From sequence record OQ174501.1: a DNA stretch of 64,000 nucleotides; one strand, given 5' to 3'. Positions within the stretch are counted from its first letter, which is position 1, and each line of letters starts with the position of its first letter. Below the pieces are notes generated by a model that was not told the origin of the DNA, did no database searches, and saw only the letters and a program-made list of their open reading frames with translations. Position numbers and translations under genes: made by a program. The DNA comes from Escherichia phage REP2. Shown piece by piece: positions 4,209-53,252 of the stretch.

Positions 4209-4778
<570 letters not shown>

Positions 4779-4798: not shown

Positions 4799-5215
4799 AT
4801 GACTCGTATTAATTTGACTTTAGTATCTGAACTTGCTGATCAACATTTAATCGCAGAATACCGTGAATTGCCACGCGTTTTTGGTATAATTCGTAAGCAT
4901 GTGGCAAACGGTAAGCGCGTTAAAGATTTTAAAATATCTTCCGAGTTTATTTTAGGTTCTGGTCATGTTACGTTCTTTTACGATAAGTTAGAATTTTTGC
5001 GAAAGCGTCAATTAGACATTATAACGGAATGCTTAAAACGCGGGTTCAGTATAAAAGATACTGAAGTTCCTGACATCAGCGATATTCCAATAGAATGGAA
5101 AAATGATTATAATCCATGCAAATCAGCTATTAAATTGAGTCAACAACGACTTGATGAAAAAATTTTAATGAAACCACACTGGTATAAGTATTACGGTAAA
5201 AATATTTACATTTAA
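4799..5215 (+). CDS. denV: Endonuclease V (pyrimidine dimer DNA glycosylase)
   Basis: 138 aa; [17 protein letters not shown]...YRELPRVFG matches T4 DenV as I recall it. Confidence 0.93.
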
Positions 5216-5224
5216 AGGAAACAT

Positions 5225-5698
5225 ATGAAAACATATCAAGAATTTATCACTGAAGCAGCTATTAATTCTCAAATTATTGCTGAATCTTTTACCGATCTTT
5301 TGAAATTTAAAAAAGGTCAAAAAATCACTGCTGTATTGGATGATGGTACAGAAGTTGAGATGGATGTACAGGGATATAATTATGCAGTAGATGGAAAACT
5401 GTATAATAAATCTCATGCTAAATTTGATTCATTTGACGACTTTGTTAATACAGTTGAAGATGAAAAAACTCGTAGATCCATTGCAACTGGCGACGCTAAG
5501 GTTCTTATGGCACATGGCCATGAACGCATCCGCGCTAAACAGAATAAAATGGGCGAAGATAATTTTGCATTAGTTGGTTATCAATCTGGTAAACAAACTT
5601 ATGGCTATCAACGTACTGCTACCATGTATAATAAAAATGGTAAAATCGCTTTCGTGAATAGTAAAGGTTCTATTCAGTACGTTAAATCGTTCAAATAA
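5225..5698 (+). CDS. Internal protein (Ip) with capsid-targeting N-terminus
   Basis: MKTYQEFITE|A capsid-targeting sequence; 157 aa. Confidence 0.7.
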   Translation: MKTYQEFITEAAINSQIIAESFTDLLKFKKGQKITAVLDDGTEVEMDVQGYNYAVDGKLYNKSHAKFDSFDDFVNTVEDEKTRRSIATGDAKVLMAHGHERIRAKQNKMGEDNFALVGYQSGKQTYGYQRTATMYNKNGKIAFVNSKGSIQYVKSFK

Positions 5699-40578: not shown

Positions 40579-43275
40579 ATGAAAGAATTTTATATCTCTA
40601 TCGAAACAGTCGGAAATAACATTGTTGAACGTTATATTGATGAAAATGGAAAGGAACGTACTCGCGAAGTAGAATATCTTCCAACTATGTTTAGACATTG
40701 TAAGGAAGAGTCAAAGTACAAAGACATCTATGGTAAAAATTGCGCTCCTCAAAAATTTCCATCAATGAAAGATGCTCGAGATTGGATGAAGCGAATGGAA
40801 GACATCGGTCTCGAAGCTCTCGGTATGAACGATTTTAAACTCGCTTATATCAGTGATACGTATGGTTCAGAAATTGTTTATGACCGAAAATTTGTTCGTG
40901 TAGCTAACTGTGACATTGAGGTTACTGGTGATAAATTTCCTGACCCAATGAAAGCTGAATATGAAATTGATGCTATCACTCATTACGATTCAATTGATGA
41001 TCGTTTTTATGTTTTCGACCTTTTGAATTCAATGTACGGTTCAGTATCAAAATGGGATGCAAAGTTAGCTGCTAAGCTTGACTGTGAAGGTGGTGATGAA
41101 GTTCCTCAAGAAATTCTTGACCGAGTAATTTATATGCCATTTGATAATGAGCGTGATATGCTCATGGAATATATTAATCTCTGGGAACAGAAACGACCTG
41201 CTATTTTTACCGGTTGGAATATTGAGGGATTTGACGTTCCGTATATCATGAATCGTGTTAAAATGGTTCTCGGTGAACGTAGTATGAAACGCTTCTCTCC
41301 AATCGGTCGAGTAAAATCTAAACTAATTCAAAATATGTATGGTAGCAAAGAAATTTATTCTATTGATGGCGTATCTATTCTTGATTATTTAGATTTGTAC
41401 AAGAAATTCGCTTTTACTAATTTGCCGTCATTCTCTTTGGAATCAGTTGCTCAACATGAAACCAAAAAAGGTAAATTACCGTATGATGGTCCTATTAATA
41501 AACTTCGTGAGACTAATCATCAACGATACATTAGTTATAACATCATTGACGTAGAATCAGTTCAAGCAATTGATAAAATTCGCGGGTTTATCGATCTAGT
41601 TTTAAGTATGTCTTATTATGCTAAAATGCCTTTTTCCGGTGTAATGAGTCCTATTAAAACCTGGGATGCCATTATTTTTAACTCATTGAAAGGTGAACAT
41701 AAGGTTATTCCTCAACAAGGTTCGCATGTTAAACAGAGTTTTCCGGGTGCATTTGTGTTTGAACCTAAACCAATTGCTCGTCGATATATTATGAGTTTTG
41801 ACTTGACGTCTCTGTATCCGAGCATTATTCGTCAGGTTAACATTAGTCCTGAGACTATTCGTGGTCAGTTTAAAGTTCATCCAATTCATGAATATATCGC
41901 AGGAACAGCTCCTAAACCAAGTGATGAATATTCTTGTTCTCCGAATGGATGGATGTATGATAAGCATCAAGAAGGTATCATTCCAAAGGAAATCGCTAAA
42001 GTATTTTTCCAGCGTAAAGATTGGAAAAAGAAAATGTTCGCTGAAGAAATGAATGCCGAAGCTATTAAAAAGATTATTATGAAAGGCGCAGGGTCTTGTT
42101 CAACTAAACCTGAAGTTGAACGATATGTTAAGTTCAGTGATGATTTCTTAAATGAATTATCGAATTACACTGAATCTGTTCTTAATAGTCTGATCGAAGA
42201 ATGTGAAAAAGCAGCTACACTTGCTAACACAAATCAGCTGAACCGTAAAATTCTTATTAACAGTCTTTATGGTGCTCTTGGTAATATTCATTTCCGTTAC
42301 TATGATTTGCGAAATGCTACTGCTATCACAATTTTCGGCCAAGTTGGTATTCAGTGGATTGCTCGTAAAATTAATGAATATCTGAATAAAGTATGCGGAA
42401 CTAATGGCGAAGATTTCATTGCAGCAGGTGATACTGATTCGGTATATGTTTGTGTAGATAAAGTTATTGAAAAAGTTGGTCTTGACCGATTCAAAGAGCA
42501 GAACGATTTAGTTGAATTCATGAATCAGTTCGGTAAGAAAAAGATGGAACCTATGATTGATGTTGCATATCGTGAGTTATGTGATTATATGAATAACCGC
42601 GAGCATCTGATGCATATGGACCGTGAAGCTATTTCTTGCCCTCCACTTGGTTCAAAGGGCGTTGGTGGATTTTGGAAAGCGAAAAAGCGTTATGCTCTGA
42701 ACGTTTATGATATGGAAGATAAGCGTTTTGCTGAACCACATCTAAAAATCATGGGTATGGAAACTCAGCAGAGTTCAACGCCTAAAGCGGTCCAAGAAGC
42801 TCTCGAAGAAAGTATTCGTCGTATTCTTCAGGAAGGTGAAGAGTCTGTCCAAGAATATTACAAGAACTTCGAGAAAGAATATCGTCAACTTGACTATAAA
42901 GTTATTGCTGAAGTAAAAACTGCGAACGATATAGCGAAATATGATGATAAAGGTTGGCCAGGATTTAAATGTCCGTTCCATATTCGTGGTGTGCTAACTT
43001 ATCGTCGAGCTGTTAGCGGTTTAGGTGTAGCTCCAATTTTGGATGGAAATAAAGTAATGGTTCTTCCATTGCGTGAAGGAAATCCATTTGGTGACAAATG
43101 CATTGCTTGGCCGTCGGGTACAGAACTTCCAAAAGAAATTCGTTCTGACGTACTGTCTTGGATTGACTACTCAACTTTGTTCCAAAAATCGTTTGTTAAA
43201 CCGCTTGCGGGTATGTGTGAATCGGCTGGCATGGACTATGAAGAAAAAGCTTCGTTAGACTTCCTGTTTGGCTGA
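40579..43275 (+). CDS. 43: DNA polymerase gp43 (family B)
   Basis: 898 aa; exonuclease and polymerase motifs (YGDTDS, KILINSLYGALG). Confidence 0.97.
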   Translation: MKEFYISIETVGNNIVERYIDENGKERTREVEYLPTMFRHCKEESKYKDIYGKNCAPQKFPSMKDARDWMKRMEDIGLEALGMNDFKLAYISDTYGSEIVYDRKFVRVANCDIEVTGDKFPDPMKAEYEIDAITHYDSIDDRFYVFDLLNSMYGSVSKWDAKLAAKLDCEGGDEVPQEILDRVIYMPFDNERDMLMEYINLWEQKRPAIFTGWNIEGFDVPYIMNRVKMVLGERSMKRFSPIGRVKSKLIQNMYGSKEIYSIDGVSILDYLDLYKKFAFTNLPSFSLESVAQHETKKGKLPYDGPINKLRETNHQRYISYNIIDVESVQAIDKIRGFIDLVLSMSYYAKMPFSGVMSPIKTWDAIIFNSLKGEHKVIPQQGSHVKQSFPGAFVFEPKPIARRYIMSFDLTSLYPSIIRQVNISPETIRGQFKVHPIHEYIAGTAPKPSDEYSCSPNGWMYDKHQEGIIPKEIAKVFFQRKDWKKKMFAEEMNAEAIKKIIMKGAGSCSTKPEVERYVKFSDDFLNELSNYTESVLNSLIEECEKAATLANTNQLNRKILINSLYGALGNIHFRYYDLRNATAITIFGQVGIQWIARKINEYLNKVCGTNGEDFIAAGDTDSVYVCVDKVIEKVGLDRFKEQNDLVEFMNQFGKKKMEPMIDVAYRELCDYMNNREHLMHMDREAISCPPLGSKGVGGFWKAKKRYALNVYDMEDKRFAEPHLKIMGMETQQSSTPKAVQEALEESIRRILQEGEESVQEYYKNFEKEYRQLDYKVIAEVKTANDIAKYDDKGWPGFKCPFHIRGVLTYRRAVSGLGVAPILDGNKVMVLPLREGNPFGDKCIAWPSGTELPKEIRSDVLSWIDYSTLFQKSFVKPLAGMCESAGMDYEEKASLDFLFG

Positions 43276-43288
43276 TAGAATAAATCTA

Positions 43289-43309
43289 GGGACCTCCGGG
43301 TCCCTTTTT
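43289..43309 (+). terminator. Rho-independent terminator
   Basis: gggacc-tccg-ggtccc + T5. Confidence 0.75.
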
Positions 43310-43379
43310 CATACAAGTAATATAAATCTATACTTATGAAAAACAGATGATTCTGGACCTTTAGAATTCCCTAAAAAAT

Positions 43380-43427
43380 TTTCACAAAACTGTTTACAAG
43401 ACTGTTCTTCCATGGTACTATACAACT
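43380..43427 (+). promoter_or_regulatory. T4 early promoter
   Basis: GTTTAC 43392-43397, TACTAT 43416-43421; shared leader ...ggagaataaaATG. Confidence 0.6.
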
Positions 43428-43455
43428 ATCAACTAATACGGATTTGGAGAATAAA

Positions 43456-43692
43456 ATGAAAATTATTATGGGATGCTTAGCAGTTTGTTTAGTTGCATTA
43501 GCAGCAGTTCCATTTGTTAGTGTTGAAAATGATACTCAACCTGTGATTGAATCTAGCACCGTTATTCACACTAATGGTAAAATATCAGTTAAAATTGATG
43601 ATAATCTTCATGTGAATACAAATGGATCTTTAGGTGTGCAAATGGGTAATACCTGCATAAGCACTACTGGAGTAATTACTACTTGCATTTGA
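43456..43692 (+). CDS. Secreted small protein
   Basis: Signal peptide MKIIMGCLAVCLVALAAVPFVSV; ORF track starts at 43444. Confidence 0.5.
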   Translation: MKIIMGCLAVCLVALAAVPFVSVENDTQPVIESSTVIHTNGKISVKIDDNLHVNTNGSLGVQMGNTCISTTGVITTCI

Positions 43693-45236: not shown

Positions 45237-45867
45237 ATGTGCCACATGTTTATAAGTATAAACATCCTAAAACTAAAAAGTGGTATATAGGAAGTCATGA
45301 TGGTCACAACCCGAATTATGATGGTTCGGGTGTAGTTTGGCAACATGCTAAAAAGAAATATGGAATAAAATCCTTTAATAAAGAAATATTATATGAAGGA
45401 CCAATGTTTAGACAGGTTGAAGAAATTATTTTAACTTGTTTAGATGCTGCTAATTGTCCGGATTCATATAATTTAAAGAATGAAGCATGGGGAGGAAGTT
45501 TTCCAGGCAAATTAAATGGAATGTACGGTAAAAACTATCTCCAGAAGAAAGATATAAGTGCGGAAATGCCTTTCGTGGAATCAAGCGTCCTGATCATTCT
45601 AAAAGAATGAAAGGCGAAGGTAATCCAATGTATGGTAAAAATGAGCAGGCATATGGAATTATAAATCGAGCCAAGGAAAATTCTGGTAAAACTTATGAAG
45701 AAATTTTTGGCGTAGAAAAAGCTAAAATAATTAAAGAAACGATGTCTAAAAATCGTAAAGGAAAACCTCATAATTTGATAGAAAAAATATGTCCGCATTG
45801 CGGACTAAAAGGACGTGGGCCAAATATGACAAGATACCATTTTGACAAATGTAAGGCACTTAAATGA
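45227..45867 (+). pseudogene. GIY-YIG (Seg-like) homing endonuclease gene split by a frameshift
   Basis: ORF 45227-45610 carries VYKYKHPKTKKWYIGSHDG (GIY-YIG) and NUMOD-like GKLNGMYGKN; the second frame, open from 45559 to 45867, carries GNAFRGIKRPDHSKRMKGEGNPMYGK repeats and the zinc finger CPHCGLKGRGPNMTRYHFDKC. Confidence 0.6.
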
Positions 45868-46783: not shown

Positions 46784-47965
46784 ATGTCTATTGCAGATTT
46801 AAAATCCCGTTTGATTAAAGCTTCCACTTCTAAAATGACTGCTGAACTGACTACATCTAAATTCTTTAATGAAAAGGATGTAATTCGTACAAAAATTCCA
46901 ATGCTTAATATTGCTATTTCTGGTGCAATTGATGGCGGTATGCAGTCTGGTTTAACTATTTTCGCAGGGCCTTCTAAACACTTTAAATCAAATATGTCTT
47001 TGACTATGGTTGCGGCATATTTGAACAAATATCCTGACGCGGTTTGTCTATTCTATGATAGCGAATTTGGTATTACTCCAGCTTATTTGCGATCCATGGG
47101 AGTTGACCCGGAACGTGTAATTCATACGCCAATTCAGTCAGTTGAACAACTGAAAATTGATATGGTGAACCAGCTTGAAGCTATTGAGCGTGGTGAAAAG
47201 GTTATTGTATTCATCGACTCAATCGGTAATATGGCTTCTAAGAAAGAAACGGAAGATGCCTTGAATGAAAAATCTGTGGCAGATATGACTCGTGCTAAAT
47301 CACTGAAGTCATTATTCCGTATTGTTACTCCTTACTTTAGCATTAAAAATATTCCATGTGTTGCGGTTAACCATACAATTGAAACAATTGAAATGTTTAG
47401 TAAAACCGTGATGACAGGTGGTACAGGCGTAATGTATTCGGCTGATACTGTATTCATTATCGGTAAGCGTCAGATTAAAGATGGTTCTGATCTTCAGGGG
47501 TATCAATTTGTTCTAAATGTAGAAAAATCTCGTACCGTTAAAGAAAAAAGTAAATTCTTTATTGATGTTAAATTTGACGGTGGTATCGATCCTTATTCTG
47601 GATTGTTAGATATGGCTCTAGAATTAGGATTTGTAGTAAAACCTAAGAATGGTTGGTATGCTCGTGAATTTCTTGACGAAGAAACCGGCGAGATGATTCG
47701 CGAAGAAAAATCTTGGCGTGCAAAAGATACCAACTGCACTACATTCTGGGGTCCTTTATTTAAGCATCAACCATTCCGAGATGCTATTAAACGCGCTTAT
47801 CAGTTAGGTGCTATTGATAGTAATGAAATTGTTGAAGCTGAAGTTGATGAATTGATTAACTCAAAGGTTGAAAAATTTAAATCTCCAGAAAGTAAAAGTA
47901 AACCAGCAGCTGATTTAGAAACTGACCTCGAGCAGTTAAGTGATATGGAAGAATTTAATGAATAA
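46784..47965 (+). CDS. uvsX: Recombinase UvsX (RecA-like)
   Basis: 393 aa; Walker A GPSKHFKS; RecA-like core. Confidence 0.93.
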   Translation: MSIADLKSRLIKASTSKMTAELTTSKFFNEKDVIRTKIPMLNIAISGAIDGGMQSGLTIFAGPSKHFKSNMSLTMVAAYLNKYPDAVCLFYDSEFGITPAYLRSMGVDPERVIHTPIQSVEQLKIDMVNQLEAIERGEKVIVFIDSIGNMASKKETEDALNEKSVADMTRAKSLKSLFRIVTPYFSIKNIPCVAVNHTIETIEMFSKTVMTGGTGVMYSADTVFIIGKRQIKDGSDLQGYQFVLNVEKSRTVKEKSKFFIDVKFDGGIDPYSGLLDMALELGFVVKPKNGWYAREFLDEETGEMIREEKSWRAKDTNCTTFWGPLFKHQPFRDAIKRAYQLGAIDSNEIVEAEVDELINSKVEKFKSPESKSKPAADLETDLEQLSDMEEFNE

Positions 47966-48311: not shown

Positions 48312-49739
48312 GTGGTAGAAATTATTCTTTCTCATCTTATATTTGATCAAGCTTATTTTTCAAAAGTTTGGCCATATATGGATTCAGAATATTTTGAAAG
48401 TGGTCCAGCTAAAAATACATTCAAATTAATTAAATCTCATGTTAATGAGTACCATAGCGTTCCATCTATTAATGCGCTAAATGTTGCATTAGAAAATAGT
48501 TCATTTACTGAAACAGAATATTCTGGTGTAAAAACACTTATTTCAAAACTGGCTGATTCTCCAGAAGACCACAGCTGGTTAATAAAAGAAACAGAAAAAT
48601 ATGTTCAGCAAAGGGCGATGTTTAATGCTACGTCTAAAATAATCGAAATTCAAACCAATGCTGAGCTTCCTCCAGAAAAACGAAATAAGAAAATGCCAGA
48701 TGTAGGTGCTATTCCTGACATCATGCGCCAAGCATTATCAATTTCATTTGATAGCTACGTTGGCCATGATTGGATGGATGACTATGAAGCACGTTGGCTA
48801 TCTTATATGAATAAAGCTCGTAAGGTTCCATTTAGACTCAAAATTCTAAATAAAATTACAAAAGGCGGAGCTGAAACAGGAACACTGAACGTTTTAATGG
48901 CTGGCGTTAACGTTGGTAAATCATTAGGACTTTGTTCATTAGCAGCAGATTATTTGCAGCTTGGTCATAACGTTCTTTATATCTCCATGGAAATGGCAGA
49001 AGAAGTCTGTGCTAAACGTATTGATGCTAATATGCTTGATGTTTCTCTTGATGACATTGATGATGGACATATTTCTTACGCTGAGTATAAAGGAAAAATG
49101 GAAAAATGGCGTGAGAAATCTACTCTCGGTCGTTTAATCGTTAAGCAATATCCTACTGGTGGAGCAGACGCTAATACATTTCGATCACTTTTAAATGAAT
49201 TGAAGCTCAAAAAGAATTTTGTTCCAACAATCATTATTGTCGACTATCTAGGTATTTGTAAATCTTGCCGCATCAGAGTTTATTCAGAAAATAGTTACAC
49301 AACTGTTAAAGCTATTGCAGAGGAATTACGTGCTCTGGCTGTTGAAACAGAAACTGTTCTTTGGACTGCAGCACAGGTTGGTAAACAAGCTTGGGACTCT
49401 TCTGATGTTAACATGAGTGATATCGCAGAATCTGCTGGTCTTCCAGCAACAGCTGATTTTATGCTTGCAGTCATTGAAACCGAGGAGCTAGCAGCTGCTG
49501 AACAACAACTCATTAAGCAAATCAAATCACGATATGGTGATAAGAATAAGTGGAATAAGTTTTTGATGGGTGTTCAAAAAGGAAATCAAAAATGGGTAGA
49601 AATTGAACAAGATTCTACTCCAACAGAAGTGAGTGAAGTAGCGGGTTCACAACAGATTCAGGCTGAACAGAATCGCTATCAAAGAAACGAATCAGCTCGA
49701 GCTCAGTTAGATGCTTTGGCAAATGAATTAAAATTTTAG
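48312..49739 (+). CDS. 41: Replicative DNA helicase gp41 (DnaB-like)
   Basis: 475 aa; Walker A GVNVGKS; GTG start; matches T4 gp41 as I recall it. Confidence 0.95.
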   Translation: MVEIILSHLIFDQAYFSKVWPYMDSEYFESGPAKNTFKLIKSHVNEYHSVPSINALNVALENSSFTETEYSGVKTLISKLADSPEDHSWLIKETEKYVQQRAMFNATSKIIEIQTNAELPPEKRNKKMPDVGAIPDIMRQALSISFDSYVGHDWMDDYEARWLSYMNKARKVPFRLKILNKITKGGAETGTLNVLMAGVNVGKSLGLCSLAADYLQLGHNVLYISMEMAEEVCAKRIDANMLDVSLDDIDDGHISYAEYKGKMEKWREKSTLGRLIVKQYPTGGADANTFRSLLNELKLKKNFVPTIIIVDYLGICKSCRIRVYSENSYTTVKAIAEELRALAVETETVLWTAAQVGKQAWDSSDVNMSDIAESAGLPATADFMLAVIETEELAAAEQQLIKQIKSRYGDKNKWNKFLMGVQKGNQKWVEIEQDSTPTEVSEVAGSQQIQAEQNRYQRNESARAQLDALANELKF

Positions 49740-49770
49740 TTTACAAGCTGACAAGACTATGGTATAGTAG
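49730..49770 (+). promoter_or_regulatory. T4 early promoter with flanking inverted repeat
   Basis: GTTTAC 49739-49744, TATAGT 49763-49768; caagact / agtcttg arms. Confidence 0.6.
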
Positions 49771-49797
49771 TCTTGTTGGTTAAATGAGGAGATTGTT

Positions 49798-49980
49798 ATG
49801 GAATTGGTAAAGGTAGTTTTTATGGGGTGGTTTAAGAATGAAAGCATGTTTACTAAAGAAACCACAATGATGAAAGATGACGTTCAATGGGCTACTACTC
49901 AATATGCTGAAGTTAATAAAGCATTAGTTAAAGCTTTCATTGATGACAAGAAAGTATGTGAAGTAGATTGCCGAGGATAA
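49798..49980 (+). CDS. dmd: Dmd antitoxin (inhibitor of host RnlA/LsoA RNases)
   Basis: 60 aa; MELVKVVFMGWFKNESMFTKE...VCEVDCRG matches T4 Dmd as I recall it. Confidence 0.88.
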   Translation: MELVKVVFMGWFKNESMFTKETTMMKDDVQWATTQYAEVNKALVKAFIDDKKVCEVDCRG

Positions 49981-49981
49981 T

Positions 49982-50239
49982 ATGCATATTGTTTTATTTA
50001 AACCTACTCCATATAACGTCAGGAAAAATACGCAATTCAAAGCACTTATTGCAGATACATGGGAATTGGTGCTAGATATTCCAGCAGAAGAAAGTCCTCC
50101 ATTTGGTCGAGTGGAATTTATTAAGTTTGCTGTACGTCCTACGAAGAGGCAGATTCGTCAATGCAAAAGATATTTTCGTAAGATCGTTAAGTTAGAGAAA
50201 CAGTTTGTAACATGTGATTATGCAGAAGTTTTAAAATAA
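49982..50239 (+). CDS. 61.4-position small basic protein (possible TifA-like anti-ToxIN factor)
   Basis: 85 aa, basic C-terminus; position between dmd and sp. Confidence 0.45.
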   Translation: MHIVLFKPTPYNVRKNTQFKALIADTWELVLDIPAEESPPFGRVEFIKFAVRPTKRQIRQCKRYFRKIVKLEKQFVTCDYAEVLK

Positions 50240-50299
50240 CTATTTACTTTTGTTGGAAATTGAGATACTATATAAACATAAACTACTGAGGAGATTATC

Positions 50300-50593
50300 A
50301 TGAAAAAATTTATTTTTGCTACAATTTTTGCTTTAGCTTCTTGTGCTGCTCAGCCTGCTATGGCAGGTTATGATAAAGATTTGTGTGAATGGTCTATGAC
50401 TGCGGATCAGACTGAAGTTGAAACTCAAATTGAAGCAGATATTATGAATATCGTTGAGCGCGATCGCCCTGAAATGAAAGCTGAAGTGCAAAAACAGCTT
50501 AAGTCTGGCGGTATCATGCAGTACAATTATGTTTTGTATTGCGATAAAAACTTCAATAATAAAAATATCGTAACCGAAATCACAGGTGAATAA
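50300..50593 (+). CDS. sp: Spackle (periplasmic lysozyme inhibitor / superinfection exclusion)
   Basis: 97 aa with signal peptide MKKFIFATIFALASCAAQPAMA. Confidence 0.8.
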   Translation: MKKFIFATIFALASCAAQPAMAGYDKDLCEWSMTADQTEVETQIEADIMNIVERDRPEMKAEVQKQLKSGGIMQYNYVLYCDKNFNNKNIVTEITGE

Positions 50594-51230
50594 TATGATT
50601 TATTATATGCACAAAAATCCACCGTTTAAATACGGTAAATTTCCTGATGCACAATGTTATAATATAACGCCGAATGAAAATAATAACGGATATCATATTG
50701 GTGTAATTTTTGTAATTGTTAAAGATAACGAAATCGTTGCCTGGGCAGATTTTAAAGGTACAACATATGATGTTAATCCTGTGCCTTTCACATATTACAA
50801 TATAATGGATTTGGCATATGATTATAATTGGTTTAATCATGACGCGTTGGCTCATATTGAAGGTGTAGGATTTGACATCTCTTATTCTAGCTATTCATTA
50901 TGTCCTATGAGCCGAGCTCACGGTAAAGATGTATCATATCTTTCAATTCGGAAACGTGTAATCTTCAAACGTAGTACAGAGTATGTTGGCGGGCTCTTTG
51001 TTAAAGATAATAAAATAACCCGCATTAGTTATCCTTTAAGTGTAGATCAAAAAGATGTTGATGTTGATTTAGACTTAACTGAAAATAACATTAATCGTAT
51101 TGCTTCTGTGTATTTTGATATCGATGAAAAAATTGTAGTGTGTGGATACGAATTACCAGCAGAAAAACAGTCTAAAGTAAATGTTTCTATTGATGACCAA
51201 ATTTTTAATGCTTTTATGAATAGAGGTTAA
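50586..51230 (+). CDS. 61.2-position protein (AdfA-like anti-DarT candidate)
   Basis: 214 aa; position between sp and 61. Confidence 0.5.
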   Translation: MNNMIYYMHKNPPFKYGKFPDAQCYNITPNENNNGYHIGVIFVIVKDNEIVAWADFKGTTYDVNPVPFTYYNIMDLAYDYNWFNHDALAHIEGVGFDISYSSYSLCPMSRAHGKDVSYLSIRKRVIFKRSTEYVGGLFVKDNKITRISYPLSVDQKDVDVDLDLTENNINRIASVYFDIDEKIVVCGYELPAEKQSKVNVSIDDQIFNAFMNRG

Positions 51231-51231
51231 T

Positions 51232-51396
51232 ATGAAAACATATAAAGAATTTATTAAAGAAGATATGGTTGCTGGAGATTCAGGTGGTAATCTTGAAAAT
51301 ATCTCTACTGGAACAACATCAGGTGCTGTAGTAAATAAAGGTCCTGAACAAATTCCTAAAAAGAAAAAAGAGGAATCTAAAGAAAAAGAAGAGTAA
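51232..51396 (+). CDS. Small protein with Ip-like capsid-targeting N-terminus
   Basis: MKTYKEFIKE|D mirrors the Ip capsid-targeting sequence MKTYQEFITE|A; 54 aa; Lys/Glu-rich tail. Confidence 0.5.
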   Translation: MKTYKEFIKEDMVAGDSGGNLENISTGTTSGAVVNKGPEQIPKKKKEESKEKEE

Positions 51397-51398
51397 AA

Positions 51399-52427
51399 AT
51401 GTCATCAATACCTTGGATTGATAATGAGTTTGCATACCGTGCATTAGCTCATTTACCTAAATTCACACAAGTAAATAATAGTTCAACTTTTAAATTGCGG
51501 TTTAGATGCCCTGTTTGTGGAGATTCAAAAACCGACCAAAATAAAGCTCGTGGATGGTATTATGGTGATAATAATGAAGGAAATATTCATTGTTATAACT
51601 GTAACTATCATGCACCAATCGGAATATATTTAAAGGAGTTTGAACCCGATTTATATCGTGAGTATATCTTTGAAATAAGAAAAGAAAAAGGTAAAAGTCG
51701 TCCAGTAGAAAAACCTAAAGAACTTCCTAAACAACCTGAGAAGAAAATAATTAAATCTCTTCCGTCATGTGTTAGATTAGATAAACTGGCGGAAGACCAT
51801 CCAATTATAAAATACGTAAAAGCTCGTTGTATTCCAAAGGATAAATGGAAATATCTTTGGTTTACAACCGAATGGCCTAAATTAGTTAATAGCATAGCAC
51901 CAGGAACATACAAAAAGGAAATTTCTGAGCCTCGTCTTGTTATTCCAATTTATAATGCTAATGGAAAAGCTGAGTCTTTTCAAGGGCGTGCATTAAAGAA
52001 AGATGCTCCTCAAAAATATATCACCATTAAAGCTTATCCTGAGGCAACAAAAATATATGGAGTCGAACGAGTTAAAGATGGTGATGTATATGTTCTAGAA
52101 GGACCTATAGATTCACTTTTTATTGAAAATGGTATAGCTATTACGGGTGGTCAATTAGACCTAGAAGTTGTTCCATTTAAAGATAGACGAGTGTGGGTTT
52201 TAGATAATGAACCTCGTCACCCTGACACTATCAAGCGAATGACTAAATTAGTTGATGCAGGAGAAAGGGTTATGTTTTGGGATAAATCTCCCTGGAAATC
52301 AAAAGATGTCAATGATATGATTAGAAAGGAAGGTGCAACCCCTGAACAAATTATGGAATATATGAAAAATAATATTGCCCAGGGGTTGATGGCTAAAATG
52401 CGGCTATCTAAATATGCTAAGATTTAA
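51399..52427 (+). CDS. 61: DNA primase gp61
   Basis: 342 aa; zinc-binding CPVCGDS...CYNC, TOPRIM-type core. Confidence 0.93.
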   Translation: MSSIPWIDNEFAYRALAHLPKFTQVNNSSTFKLRFRCPVCGDSKTDQNKARGWYYGDNNEGNIHCYNCNYHAPIGIYLKEFEPDLYREYIFEIRKEKGKSRPVEKPKELPKQPEKKIIKSLPSCVRLDKLAEDHPIIKYVKARCIPKDKWKYLWFTTEWPKLVNSIAPGTYKKEISEPRLVIPIYNANGKAESFQGRALKKDAPQKYITIKAYPEATKIYGVERVKDGDVYVLEGPIDSLFIENGIAITGGQLDLEVVPFKDRRVWVLDNEPRHPDTIKRMTKLVDAGERVMFWDKSPWKSKDVNDMIRKEGATPEQIMEYMKNNIAQGLMAKMRLSKYAKI

Positions 52428-52624
52428 ATTAACCCAACTAAAGCAAATGCTAAATCTACAAATGTATCAAGAGTAACTACTGGAATATTAACACCATGCG
52501 CAATTGCAATTGGTGATAAAATAAAGTTCCAGAGTAAAATTCCTACCATAGCAGAAATAGTAAAAGCTATACGTTTCTTATTACCTTTGATGGCATTAAC
52601 AAGTGCCATTAATTTTTGTACCAT
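52424..52624 (-). CDS. Small membrane protein (66 aa)
   Basis: Minus-strand ORF with AGGAGG 5 nt upstream of its ATG; hydrophobic helices; convergent with gene 61. Confidence 0.5.
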   Translation of the reverse strand: MVQKLMALVNAIKGNKKRIAFTISAMVGILLWNFILSPIAIAHGVNIPVVTLDTFVDLAFALVGLI

Positions 52625-53244: not shown

Positions 53245-53252
53245 TATAAATA
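53245..53252 (+). promoter_or_regulatory. T4-type late promoter (TATAAATA)
   Basis: Exact TATAAATA about 30 nt upstream of soc. Confidence 0.6.

Follow-up and report, generated by a model that had tools for sequence, protein, structure and literature searches.

A dmd-tifA-sp-adfA-61.1 block resembling the proposed T4 anti-TA island, with a Mosigvirus-type adfA allele, in Escherichia phage REP3

An 'anti-TA island' has already been proposed at this position in phage T4, in work that stated 61.4 to be TifA and 61.2 to be AdfA (Srikant 2022, eLife, PMC9391042). The same study renamed 61.4 tifA, cited the inhibition of the RnlA and LsoA toxins by direct binding of T4 Dmd, described an early promoter as the driver of dmd-61.4 and stated that a further promoter lies downstream of tifA (Srikant et al., PMC9391042). 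Binding of ToxN and RNA, as well as a block of ToxN toxicity, has been shown for the TifA proteins of T4, T2, T6 and RB69; a PT motif, a basic helix and residue 41 have been described, and F41S/H changes are reported to improve ToxN inhibition (PMC10853763). Without amplification of tifA, wild-type T4 is subject to restriction by toxIN, the F41 allele being non-protective at single copy (PMC9391042, PMC10853763). For AdfA, the native Arg164 allele of RB69 is credited to LeRoux et al. 2022, as cited in PMC11825919. That allele neither associates with nor neutralizes DarT1, whereas the R164H change lets RB69 AdfA bind and neutralize the toxin; RB69 carrying the Arg allele is strongly blocked by DarTG1, and R164H escape mutants arise rapidly (PMC11825919). 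The main counter-defence against DarTG1 is AdfN (PMC11825919, PMC11257639). Spackle inhibits the gp5 lysozyme and mediates superinfection exclusion (PMC7677548). In T4, dmd, 61.4, sp and 61.2 are early as both RNA and protein, whilst 61.1 is early as RNA and its protein went undetected in proteomics (PMC9697503 supplement). No published function for gp61.1 was found in the literature searched.

We examined the corresponding locus (49798-51396) in a window comprising the whole 64,000-nucleotide stretch of DNA analysed. At this locus the window is a 100 % match to Escherichia phage REP3 (OQ174502.1; Tequatrovirus), in which five identical CDS are annotated, and the ORF list places five same-strand ORFs between helicase gene 41 and primase gene 61 (Table 1). 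Four of the encoded proteins are members of Pfam families: Dmd (PF17587, 1.8e-45, 153.5 bits against a cut-off of 27, full length 1-60), TifA (DUF7279, 2.3e-20, 72.7 bits against a cut-off of 24.5), Spackle (T4_Spackle, PF25676, 3e-45, 153.2 bits against 27) and AdfA (PF23813, 1.5e-124, 413.7 bits against 27, residues 1-211 of 211), placing the reality of these ORFs far beyond chance. All five proteins were matched in PHROGs (phrog_2375 at 2.4e-38 for TifA and phrog_1823 at 1.5e-32 for gp61.1), and NCBIfam returned no match for any of them. Identity to the T4 counterparts was 98 % for Dmd, 99 % for TifA, 94 % for Spackle, 71 % for AdfA and 94 % for gp61.1. Pfam, PHROGs and the REP3 annotation agree with an earlier sequence-only reading that had recognized five small, tightly packed genes here. 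Stop-to-start spacing was just 1-2 nt within dmd-tifA and within sp-adfA-61.1-61, indicating two translationally packed blocks, the second of which runs into primase gene 61. The window has one copy of the locus, and tandem amplification of dmd-tifA, as seen in T4 escaping ToxIN, was absent. Minus-strand ORFs inside the island, for example at 50580-50855, were rejected as genes: they lie within conserved plus-strand genes, and none has a family match of its own.

Table 1. Features of the island and its flanks, in window coordinates
Feature	Coordinates	Strand	Description and basis
Gene 41, replicative helicase (left flank)	48312..49739	+	ORF list, REP3 annotation, 91-100 % nt identity to T4
Early promoter 5' of dmd	49740..49768	+	TTTACA - 17 nt - TATAGT, TG-extended; top-scoring promoter-like site in scan
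dmd (61.5), RnlA/LsoA endoribonuclease antitoxin	49798..49980	+	60 aa; Pfam Dmd, T4 identity, PDB match
tifA (61.4), basic RNA-binding ToxN inhibitor, T4-type F41 allele	49982..50239	+	85 aa; homology to T4 gp61.4
Putative second early-promoter-like element, 60-nt tifA-sp gap	~50243..50271	+	TTTACT - 17 nt - TACTAT
sp (spackle, 61.3), periplasmic gp5 tail lysozyme inhibitor	50300..50593	+	97 aa; Pfam, T4 identity, PDB
Mosigvirus-type DNA patch in T4-type backbone	50520..51190	+	~650 bp, approximate boundaries; windowed identity, megablast
adfA (61.2), anti-DarT factor A, RB69/Mosigvirus-type allele, T4-type C-terminal tail	50595..51230	+	211 aa; Pfam AdfA
Arg168 codon CGT of REP3 AdfA (RB69 Arg164, His in T4)	51096..51098	+	Alignment, numbering check
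61.1	51232..51396	+	54 aa: capsid-targeting-like leader 1-10, gp23-like core 11-42, Lys/Glu-rich tail
Gene 61, primase (right flank)	51399..52427	+	ORF list, REP3 annotation, junction sequence; 2-nt gap after 61.1

The locus very probably represents the dmd-tifA-sp-adfA-61.1 accessory block of a T4-type phage, proposed in T4 as the anti-TA island, with two early promoters and with functions in REP3 expected to be those of the T4 and RB69 homologs. In other words, this is the anti-TA island already published for T4, found in a close relative of that phage, and in itself it adds nothing new. Anti-toxin activity has been demonstrated for the families of three of the five genes (dmd, tifA and adfA), and for these the description of the locus as an anti-defence island holds. 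It does not extend to sp, a superinfection-exclusion gene, or to 61.1. Neither of these is a known anti-defence gene, and 61.1 is far wider in its conservation (1199 records among phages vs 641 for tifA and 486 for adfA), such that applying the label to the whole block is an overstatement. By analogy with the homologs, Dmd, TifA and AdfA would act as stoichiometric protein inhibitors of abortive-infection toxins, with Dmd binding the RNases RnlA and LsoA, TifA, together with RNA, binding the RNase ToxN, and AdfA binding the DNA ADP-ribosyltransferase DarT1. Spackle would be exported to the periplasm, there blocking the gp5 lysozyme of superinfecting phages.

The dmd promoter is identical to that of T4, and only one of 79 positions in the 41-dmd intergenic region differs between the two phages, lying outside the hexamers. 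A single early promoter had been proposed for the whole block; the promoter before dmd bears this out in part, but the picture is incomplete given a second early-promoter-like element before sp. T4 and RB51 share this element, with the sequence GTTTAC; in REP3 its first G is replaced by A. A GTTTAC-type element likewise precedes sp in RB69. As it scores under the threshold of the sigma-70 consensus scan, the element is proposed rather than demonstrated. From these sequence features we infer two promoters, before dmd and before sp, with the sp unit extending into gene 61; early transcription would then initiate at both, the second unit continuing into the primase gene. The late promoter TATAAATA was found nowhere in the island, its nearest copy lying at 53245, before soc.

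Dmd is identical to T4 Dmd at 59 of 60 residues, the sole difference being I22T, and matches 'Antitoxin Dmd' in the PDB (5hy3_B, 9.6e-37). The original dmd call is confirmed, and we infer that REP3 Dmd behaves as in T4. Spackle is identical to its T4 counterpart at 91 of 97 residues, including all of residues 1-52 and hence the N-terminal signal peptide, and matches 'Protein spackle' in PDB entries 6x6o, 6xc0, 6xc1 and 7cn6 (2.8e-60). The gene call for sp therefore stands, whereas its inclusion among anti-defence genes does not, the protein acting in superinfection exclusion instead (PMC7677548).

The products of 61.4 and 61.2 had been named TifA and AdfA from position only, with a lack of similarity to the T4 products given as the point that would count against them. 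Similarity is clear in both cases (84/85 and 71 %), and the literature supports both names (PMC9391042). TifA belongs to the T4 gp61.4 family, from which it differs only by I83V, and displays the RNA-binding element expected of it, with a P53-T54 cap followed by the basic C-terminal helix KRQIRQCKRYFRKIVK and an excess of basic residues (K+R 17 vs D+E 9). No match to TifA was found among PDB sequences. Loop residue 41, which bears on potency and not on family membership, is F as in wild-type T4 rather than the Ser or His of strong inhibitors. If REP3 TifA behaves as that of T4, a single copy of the F41 allele probably gives too little protection against E. coli ToxIN.

In the case of adfA, the 214-aa ORF of the earlier description is a real gene, but its GTG start at 50586 is most likely replaced by the ATG at 50595, giving 211 aa; an AGGTGA Shine-Dalgarno sequence lies 5 nt upstream and the position matches the GenBank CDS start. 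The full-length Pfam match secures family membership. The protein is 93 % identical to RB69 AdfA, with residues 5-188 matching RB69 residues 1-184 at 178 of 184 positions. This relationship is reflected in the DNA. In 100-nt windows, identity to RB69 was 88-100 % in a patch covering most of the gene vs 56-86 % in the flanks, and identity to T4 was 48-91 % in the patch vs 91-100 % in the flanks. A megablast search with 50700-51150 returned only REP3 and 215Ecol030PP at 99 % or above, followed by approximately 137 records at 95-99 %, of which the one checked (AV114) was a Mosigvirus. Searches for more distant relatives were uninformative: a HMMER scan of 1.84 billion representatives yielded one full-length cluster plus fragments, and a word-indexed search yielded 16 clusters, all Tevenvirinae-type, leaving no deeper family from which to learn. 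No match was found among PDB sequences. An AlphaFold2 model built from a 16-sequence alignment was of moderate quality only (mean pLDDT 67.8, pTM 0.54), and a Foldseek search of the PDB with it gave nothing below E 0.08, with TM at most 0.23.

At the position corresponding to RB69 residue 164, REP3 AdfA carries Arg rather than His. A single G-to-A change, CGT to CAT, would turn this residue into His. Taken together with the patch, this suggests that REP3 AdfA was imported from a Mosigvirus-type phage and probably does not neutralize the tested E. coli DarT1. REP3 AdfN (gp30.3), encoded elsewhere in the genome, is intact and identical to that of T4 at 150 of 152 residues, and resistance to DarTG1 would rest on this protein rather than on AdfA. 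The presence of 'adfA' in an annotation is accordingly no predictor of DarTG1 resistance.

REP3 AdfA may instead be tuned to another DarT. Six substitutions relative to RB69 residues 1-184, together with the T4-type tail, mean that its DarT specificity could also differ from that of the RB69 protein. It is quite possible, if somewhat short of probable, that Arg164-type AdfA is fully active against a DarT homolog other than the assayed E. coli DarT1, making the acquisition from Mosigvirus adaptive. Such alleles are common (258 member sequences in cluster P0001, alongside the approximately 137 phage records noted above), the REP3 ORF is intact and conserved, and the patch has been retained in two isolates (USA and Poland) after its transfer between genera. 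That inactive AdfA variants may neutralize other DarT homologs has also been raised by the authors of the experimental studies (PMC11825919, PMC11257639). Set against this, the Arg allele is not known to target any DarT, and RB69 bearing it is both strongly blocked by DarTG1 and quick to yield R164H escape mutants. More generally, adfA moves between genera as a cassette, here from Mosigvirus to Tequatrovirus, and the residue that determines specificity may be His, Arg or Asn, which supports the notion of AdfA alleles matched to different DarT toxins.

The final gene, 61.1, encodes a protein identical to T4 gp61.1 at 51 of 54 residues. The capsid-targeting sequence (CTS) reported for it earlier is present as a CTS-like N-terminus: the leader MKTYKEFIKE agrees with the published CTS, MKTYQEFIAE, at eight of ten positions and ends in I-K-E at residues 8-10. 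Fusion to the published sequence reportedly takes any protein into the capsid. Beyond the leader, gp61.1 resembles the major capsid protein. Whilst Pfam gave no match to gp61.1 or its homologs even at E = 10, a family profile searched against all PDB sequences retrieved only T4 gp23 (E 1.7e-5), aligning residues 3-39 with gp23 58-94. The relationship was recovered by hhalign (probability 93 %) and by BLASTP (43 % identity over 37 residues, E 1e-8), and none of 2000 shuffles reached the observed score. Eleven positions are invariant across gp23 and the 61.1 proteins of three genera. No nucleotide similarity between 61.1 and gene 23 was found, indicating that the duplication is old rather than recent. 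Covariation of 61.1 with its cognate gp23 across T4, RB69 and CC31 was uninformative, as both segments are nearly invariant in these phages. Some databases label gp61.1 homologs 'Major capsid domain-containing protein', a label with which Pfam disagrees and the PDB profile search agrees.

Several roles could be considered for this peptide. We tentatively propose, as a rather unlikely but specific possibility, that gp61.1 is more than a filler ORF and mimics the gp23 propeptide/N-arm junction in a conserved manner, having gained an internal-protein CTS leader in T4-type phages; it would enter the prohead, be cut by gp21 after Glu10 and serve as a modulator of head maturation or as a small injected effector, hitherto unrecognized, whose gene adjoins those of the anti-toxins. 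A related and similarly doubtful reading is that of a head-internal peptide, carried by the CTS into the prohead core and cut after Glu10 by gp21 to leave a 44-residue peptide in the head; it might be injected, and would then be a possible fourth counter-defence or assembly factor. The leader favours this reading at both levels, since its DNA is also identical at 29 of 33 nt to the beginning of the internal-protein gene that the phage itself carries at 5225. So does Glu10, whose exact counterpart in the alignment is gp23 Glu65, the P1 position at which gp23 is cut during maturation, as placed by the mature chain in 5vf3 that starts three residues before GGDHGY; P1 Glu is invariant and P3 hydrophobic in 17 of 17 homologs, indel-bearing ones included. 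The expression evidence runs the other way, with no late promoter in the island and, in T4, early RNA and undetected protein (PMC9697503 supplement). The cut peptide would be slightly acidic (K+R 7, D+E 9), unlike the basic internal proteins, and long-form homologs of approximately 155 aa have no N-terminal CTS, their Glu-Asp junction being internal.

It is improbable that gp61.1 instead has a cytoplasmic role, mimicking the gp23 N-terminal region as a decoy or competitor whose target is either a host factor or a defence sensor of nascent major capsid protein, of the EF-Tu/Lit or capsid-sensing type. The similarity to gp23 58-94 is significant and specific, the gene is transcribed early and adjoins three anti-toxin genes, and, in Gol-Lit, binding to EF-Tu has been reported for the first quarter of gp23 (PMC3014915). 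Against this reading, the very broad spread of the gene over Straboviridae genera suits housekeeping more than an arms race. Moreover, the Gol region, which we take to lie just downstream of gp23 residue 93, may have no overlap with the gp61.1-like segment.

The idea that 61.1 serves chiefly to couple translation to primase gene 61 as a leader ORF, its peptide being functionless, is likewise very unlikely: the ORF stops 2 nt short of the start codon of gene 61, always lies directly upstream of 61 and has a product undetected in T4 proteomics (PMC9697503 supplement), but 19 amino-acid positions are invariant among homologs only 59-75 % identical overall and the core is retained in short and long forms and in many genera, pointing to selection on the peptide sequence itself. 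With conservation wider than that of its anti-toxin neighbours, a statistically solid resemblance to gp23 and a CTS leader, gp61.1 offers a lead on a T4 gene without an assigned function.

Compared with the T4 anti-TA island (PMC9391042), the REP3 island has the same gene order, flanking genes and dmd promoter. It differs in its RB69-type adfA, just 71 % identical to that of T4, with Arg in place of His at 164 and a product of 211 aa vs 208 aa in T4, and in the G-to-A change at the first base of GTTTAC before sp. RB69 (Mosigvirus) shares with REP3 the AdfA core, including Arg164 and with nucleotide identity of up to 100 %. The REP3 protein departs from it in its T4-type tail, which lacks the five-residue insertion of RB69, and in the substitutions A5P, N14D, T80A, A109V, N119I and S147D (RB69 numbering). 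In RB69 the island contains imm, imm.1 and four further ORFs as well, whereas the context in REP3 is T4-like. Islands of the RB32/RB51 type carry an extra 357-bp gene (RB32ORF033c) between adfA and 61.1, absent in REP3 and T4. This gene encodes a diverged paralogue of the C-terminal half of AdfA that finishes with the same SIDDQIFNAFMNRG; elsewhere these islands display approximately 94 % nucleotide identity to REP3. [quoted passage not shown] Similarly, gp61.1 has no HK97-fold body and its gene no nucleotide similarity to gene 23, but its likeness to gp23 residues 58-94 covers the end of the propeptide and the N-terminal arm of gp23*, in register with the Glu65 cleavage site.

The stretch between the helicase and primase genes (41 and 61) was found to be filled at 49798–51396 by five plus-strand ORFs with next to no spacing. 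Stop-to-start distances were 1–2 nt within dmd-tifA and within sp-adfA-61.1-61. The region 49700–51450 is 100 % identical to that of Escherichia phage REP3 (OQ174502.1), a Tequatrovirus from river water in the USA whose GenBank CDS are the same five, and we therefore refer to REP3 below; at least 80 % nucleotide identity to the region was observed in approximately 660 phage records. The first four ORFs matched the Pfam families Dmd (1.8e-45), DUF7279 (61.4/TifA; 2.3e-20), T4_Spackle (3e-45) and AdfA (1.5e-124), whilst the 54-aa ORF matched a phage protein family (see table); as sequence matches, all five are far beyond chance. The sequence-only reading had called dmd and sp directly, and both calls hold, with 59/60 residues identical to T4 Dmd and 91/97 to T4 Spackle. 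The functions at 61.4 and 61.2 had been assigned from position, and alignment to the T4 products was set beforehand as the check that might overturn them. It revealed clear similarity to both (84/85 identical for gp61.4 and 71 % for gp61.2), so neither assignment was refuted. Position 61.4 is indeed tifA (ToxN inhibitory factor A), as renamed by Srikant et al. (PMC9391042), and 61.2 is AdfA; the functions assigned from position match published ones, so that an already published system had been correctly recognized. One start was misplaced: adfA most likely begins not at GTG 50586 but at ATG 50595, the GenBank start, 5 nt downstream of the Shine-Dalgarno sequence AGGTGA, giving 211 aa.

Features of the gene 41–61 interval and of regions discussed with it (window positions unless a locus is named)
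Feature	Position	Strand	Remarks
Lysozyme e	4245–4739		
denV-like ORF	4799–5215		
Internal virion protein	5225–5698		DUF7412 (Pfam); phrog_3155; canonical leader MKTYQEFITE
Gene 41, replicative helicase	48312–49739		left flank
dmd promoter	49740–49768	+	TTTACA-17-TATAGT, TG upstream; top match of promoter scan
61.1, 54 aa	51232–51396	+	phrog_1823, 1.5e-32; 51/54 identical to T4 gp61.1
Gene 61, primase	51399–52427		right flank
66-aa hydrophobic ORF	52424–52624	−	phrog_2024; homolog of RB69ORF029w; two hydrophobic stretches
Terminator-like hairpin	52587–52612		
Extra 118-aa gene, RB32/RB51-type	1830–2186 of L006 (RB51 locus)		absent from window

A single early promoter had been proposed for the whole block, yet a second element, TTTACT-17-TACTAT, lies in the 60-nt gap before sp. 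The dmd promoter matches that of T4, where an early promoter drives the dmd-61.4 pair, and the paper by Srikant et al. (PMC9391042) refers to a promoter lying downstream of tifA. The element before sp is conserved in T4 and RB51, reading GTTTAC, and RB69 likewise has a GTTTAC-type element there, whereas in REP3 A replaces G at the first base. Because of this change and a score below the sigma-70 scan threshold, we infer, rather than assert, a second promoter at this site. A scan of the island identified no terminator-like sites. In T4 omics data, dmd, 61.4, sp and 61.2 are classed as early by transcript as well as by protein (PMC9697503 supplement).

The description of the block as an anti-defence island stands for dmd, tifA and adfA, but not for Spackle, which inhibits the tail lysozyme gp5 in the periplasm, mediates superinfection exclusion (PMC7677548; structures 6x6o, 6xc0, 6xc1 and 7cn6) and is not an anti-defence protein. 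By transfer from T4, Dmd (PDB counterpart 5hy3, 'Antitoxin Dmd') would bind and inhibit the RNases RnlA and LsoA, as published (PMC9391042), and TifA, by transfer from T4/RB69, would bind ToxN jointly with RNA. The nucleic-acid-binding element of TifA is a conserved Pro-Thr-capped basic helix, and loop residue 41 tunes potency (PMC10853763); wild-type T4, which has F41, overcomes restriction by E. coli toxIN only when dmd-tifA is amplified or Ser/His replaces F41 (PMC9391042, PMC10853763). REP3 TifA retains P53-T54, the basic helix and F41, and the locus is in single copy, from which we predict ToxIN sensitivity like that of T4.

The adfA gene departs from this T4-like picture. REP3 AdfA is 93 % identical to RB69 AdfA versus 71 % to T4 AdfA, and its residues 5–188 match RB69 1–184 at 178 of 184 positions; only the last ~20 residues are T4-like, without the 5-residue insertion of RB69. 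Across ~50520–51190, DNA identity to T4 falls from 91–100 % in the backbone to 48–91 %, and identity to RB69 is 88–100 % versus 56–86 % in the flanks. In megablast searches the core (50700–51150) reached at least 99 % only in REP3 and 215Ecol030PP (Tequatrovirus, Poland), with ~137 further records at 95–99 %, the single one checked (AV114) being a Mosigvirus. The identity switch and these matches argue that a Mosigvirus-type adfA cassette replaced the T4-type one. Its boundaries are likely the sp 3′ end and the conserved tail SIDDQIFNAFMNRG, which adfA shares with RB32ORF033c, an extra half-size AdfA paralogue. Cluster representatives also include recombinants in which an RB69-type N-terminal half is joined to a C-terminal half of T4 type.

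By transfer from T4 and RB69, AdfA would neutralize DarT1 through direct association, for which His is required at residue 164 (RB69 numbering); in RB69 the native allele, with Arg, provides neither association nor phage rescue (PMC11825919, PMC11257639). RB69 Arg164 corresponds to REP3 Arg168 (codon CGT, 51096–51098), and by the published criterion this allele should not neutralize the tested DarT1. His, Arg and Asn all occur at this position among cluster representatives, and one G-to-A transition would convert the REP3 allele to the His state. For AdfA, no solved relatives or fold match to the model were found in PDB, and no remote homologs among 1.84 billion representatives; the AlphaFold model was moderate (pLDDT 67.8). 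The main DarTG1 counter-defence reported in T-even phages is AdfN, a NADAR-type DNA ADP-ribosylglycohydrolase (PMC11825919, PMC11257639). An intact adfN (gp30.3; 150/152 residues identical to T4 AdfN) is present outside the window at 43011–43469 of the REP3 record (5012–5470 of L011, the REP3 locus), and its product is likely the real DarTG1 counter-defence of REP3.

The capsid-targeting sequence (CTS) noted in the 54-aa protein is real at sequence level: the gp61.1 leader MKTYKEFIKE is identical to the published CTS, MKTYQEFIAE (PMC8442874), at 8/10 positions. Elsewhere in the window, the motif was found across six frames in a single ORF, that of an internal virion protein, which served as the in-genome CTS reference; the starts of the two genes share 29/33 nt. 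The internal protein gene adjoins lysozyme e and a denV-like ORF. Residues 2–38 of gp61.1 align without gaps to residues 57–93 of T4 gp23, the major capsid protein (BLASTP; 43 % identity, E 1e-8), with a local score reached by 0/2000 shuffles (z-score ~11). A 17-member family alignment matched gp23 at 93 % probability (hhalign), and its profile retrieved only T4 gp23 chains from all PDB sequences (E 1.7e-5). Glu10 falls on gp23 Glu65, after which the gp21 protease cuts, a site visible in the mature gp23 chain starting 3 residues before GGDHGY; P1 is Glu and P3 hydrophobic in 17/17 homologs. Judged by alignment, the gp61.1 core is paralogous to gp23 residues 58–94, the gp21 cleavage junction and N-arm. 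In Mosigvirus and Karamvirus a long form (~155 aa; phrog_2086) carries the core C-terminally with the junction internal, whereas in T4-type phages the 10-residue leader replaces its N-terminal ~100 residues.

The leader and the Glu10 alignment would suit a capsid-targeted, gp21-processed gp23 mimic, but we consider this doubtful: the island has no late promoter, the predicted product is mildly acidic, and in T4 61.1 RNA is early and the protein undetected (PMC9697503 supplement). Less probable still, and about equally so, are a cytoplasmic decoy and a mere coupling ORF. A literature search for gp61.1 function found no paper. Among phage records from many host genera, 61.1 occurs in 1199 versus 641 for tifA and 486 for adfA, and a general role therefore fits better than an arms-race role.

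Differences from T4 were also observed nearby. Between primase 61, whose end it overlaps by 4 nt, and dCTPase 56 lies a 66-aa minus-strand ORF where T4 has dam methyltransferase; no Dam homolog was found in the 64-kb window. A terminator-like hairpin is also present (see table). Next to uvsX (46784–47965 and upstream) the window lacks segA, which in T4 encodes a homing endonuclease, with only a weak seg-like match at 45278–45478 (44 % over 71 aa). Upstream of uvsX, the REP3 record annotates a beta-glucosyl-HMC-alpha-glucosyltransferase, which would suggest DNA glucosylation of the T2/T6 rather than the T4 type.

RB32/RB51-type relatives carry RB32ORF033c between adfA and 61.1, which REP3 and T4 do not. 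This 118-aa product is a diverged AdfA C-terminal half with the last 14 residues identical. These sequences point to a separable C-domain module in AdfA and to the conserved tail as a recombination anchor. In Mosigvirus (RB69 locus L003, 2256–8430; AV114 locus L008) the 41–61 interval also has the superinfection-immunity genes imm and imm.1 adjoining sp, as well as several ORFs of unknown function, and tifA is not among the annotated genes of AV114. This makes the interval a variable hotspot of accessory genes in which anti-toxin and exclusion functions are mixed. In sum, the island is confirmed and its interpretation supported, and this analysis adds the transferred Arg164-type adfA cassette, its main new detail, and the anatomy of gp61.1 to an already known island nearly identical to that of T4.
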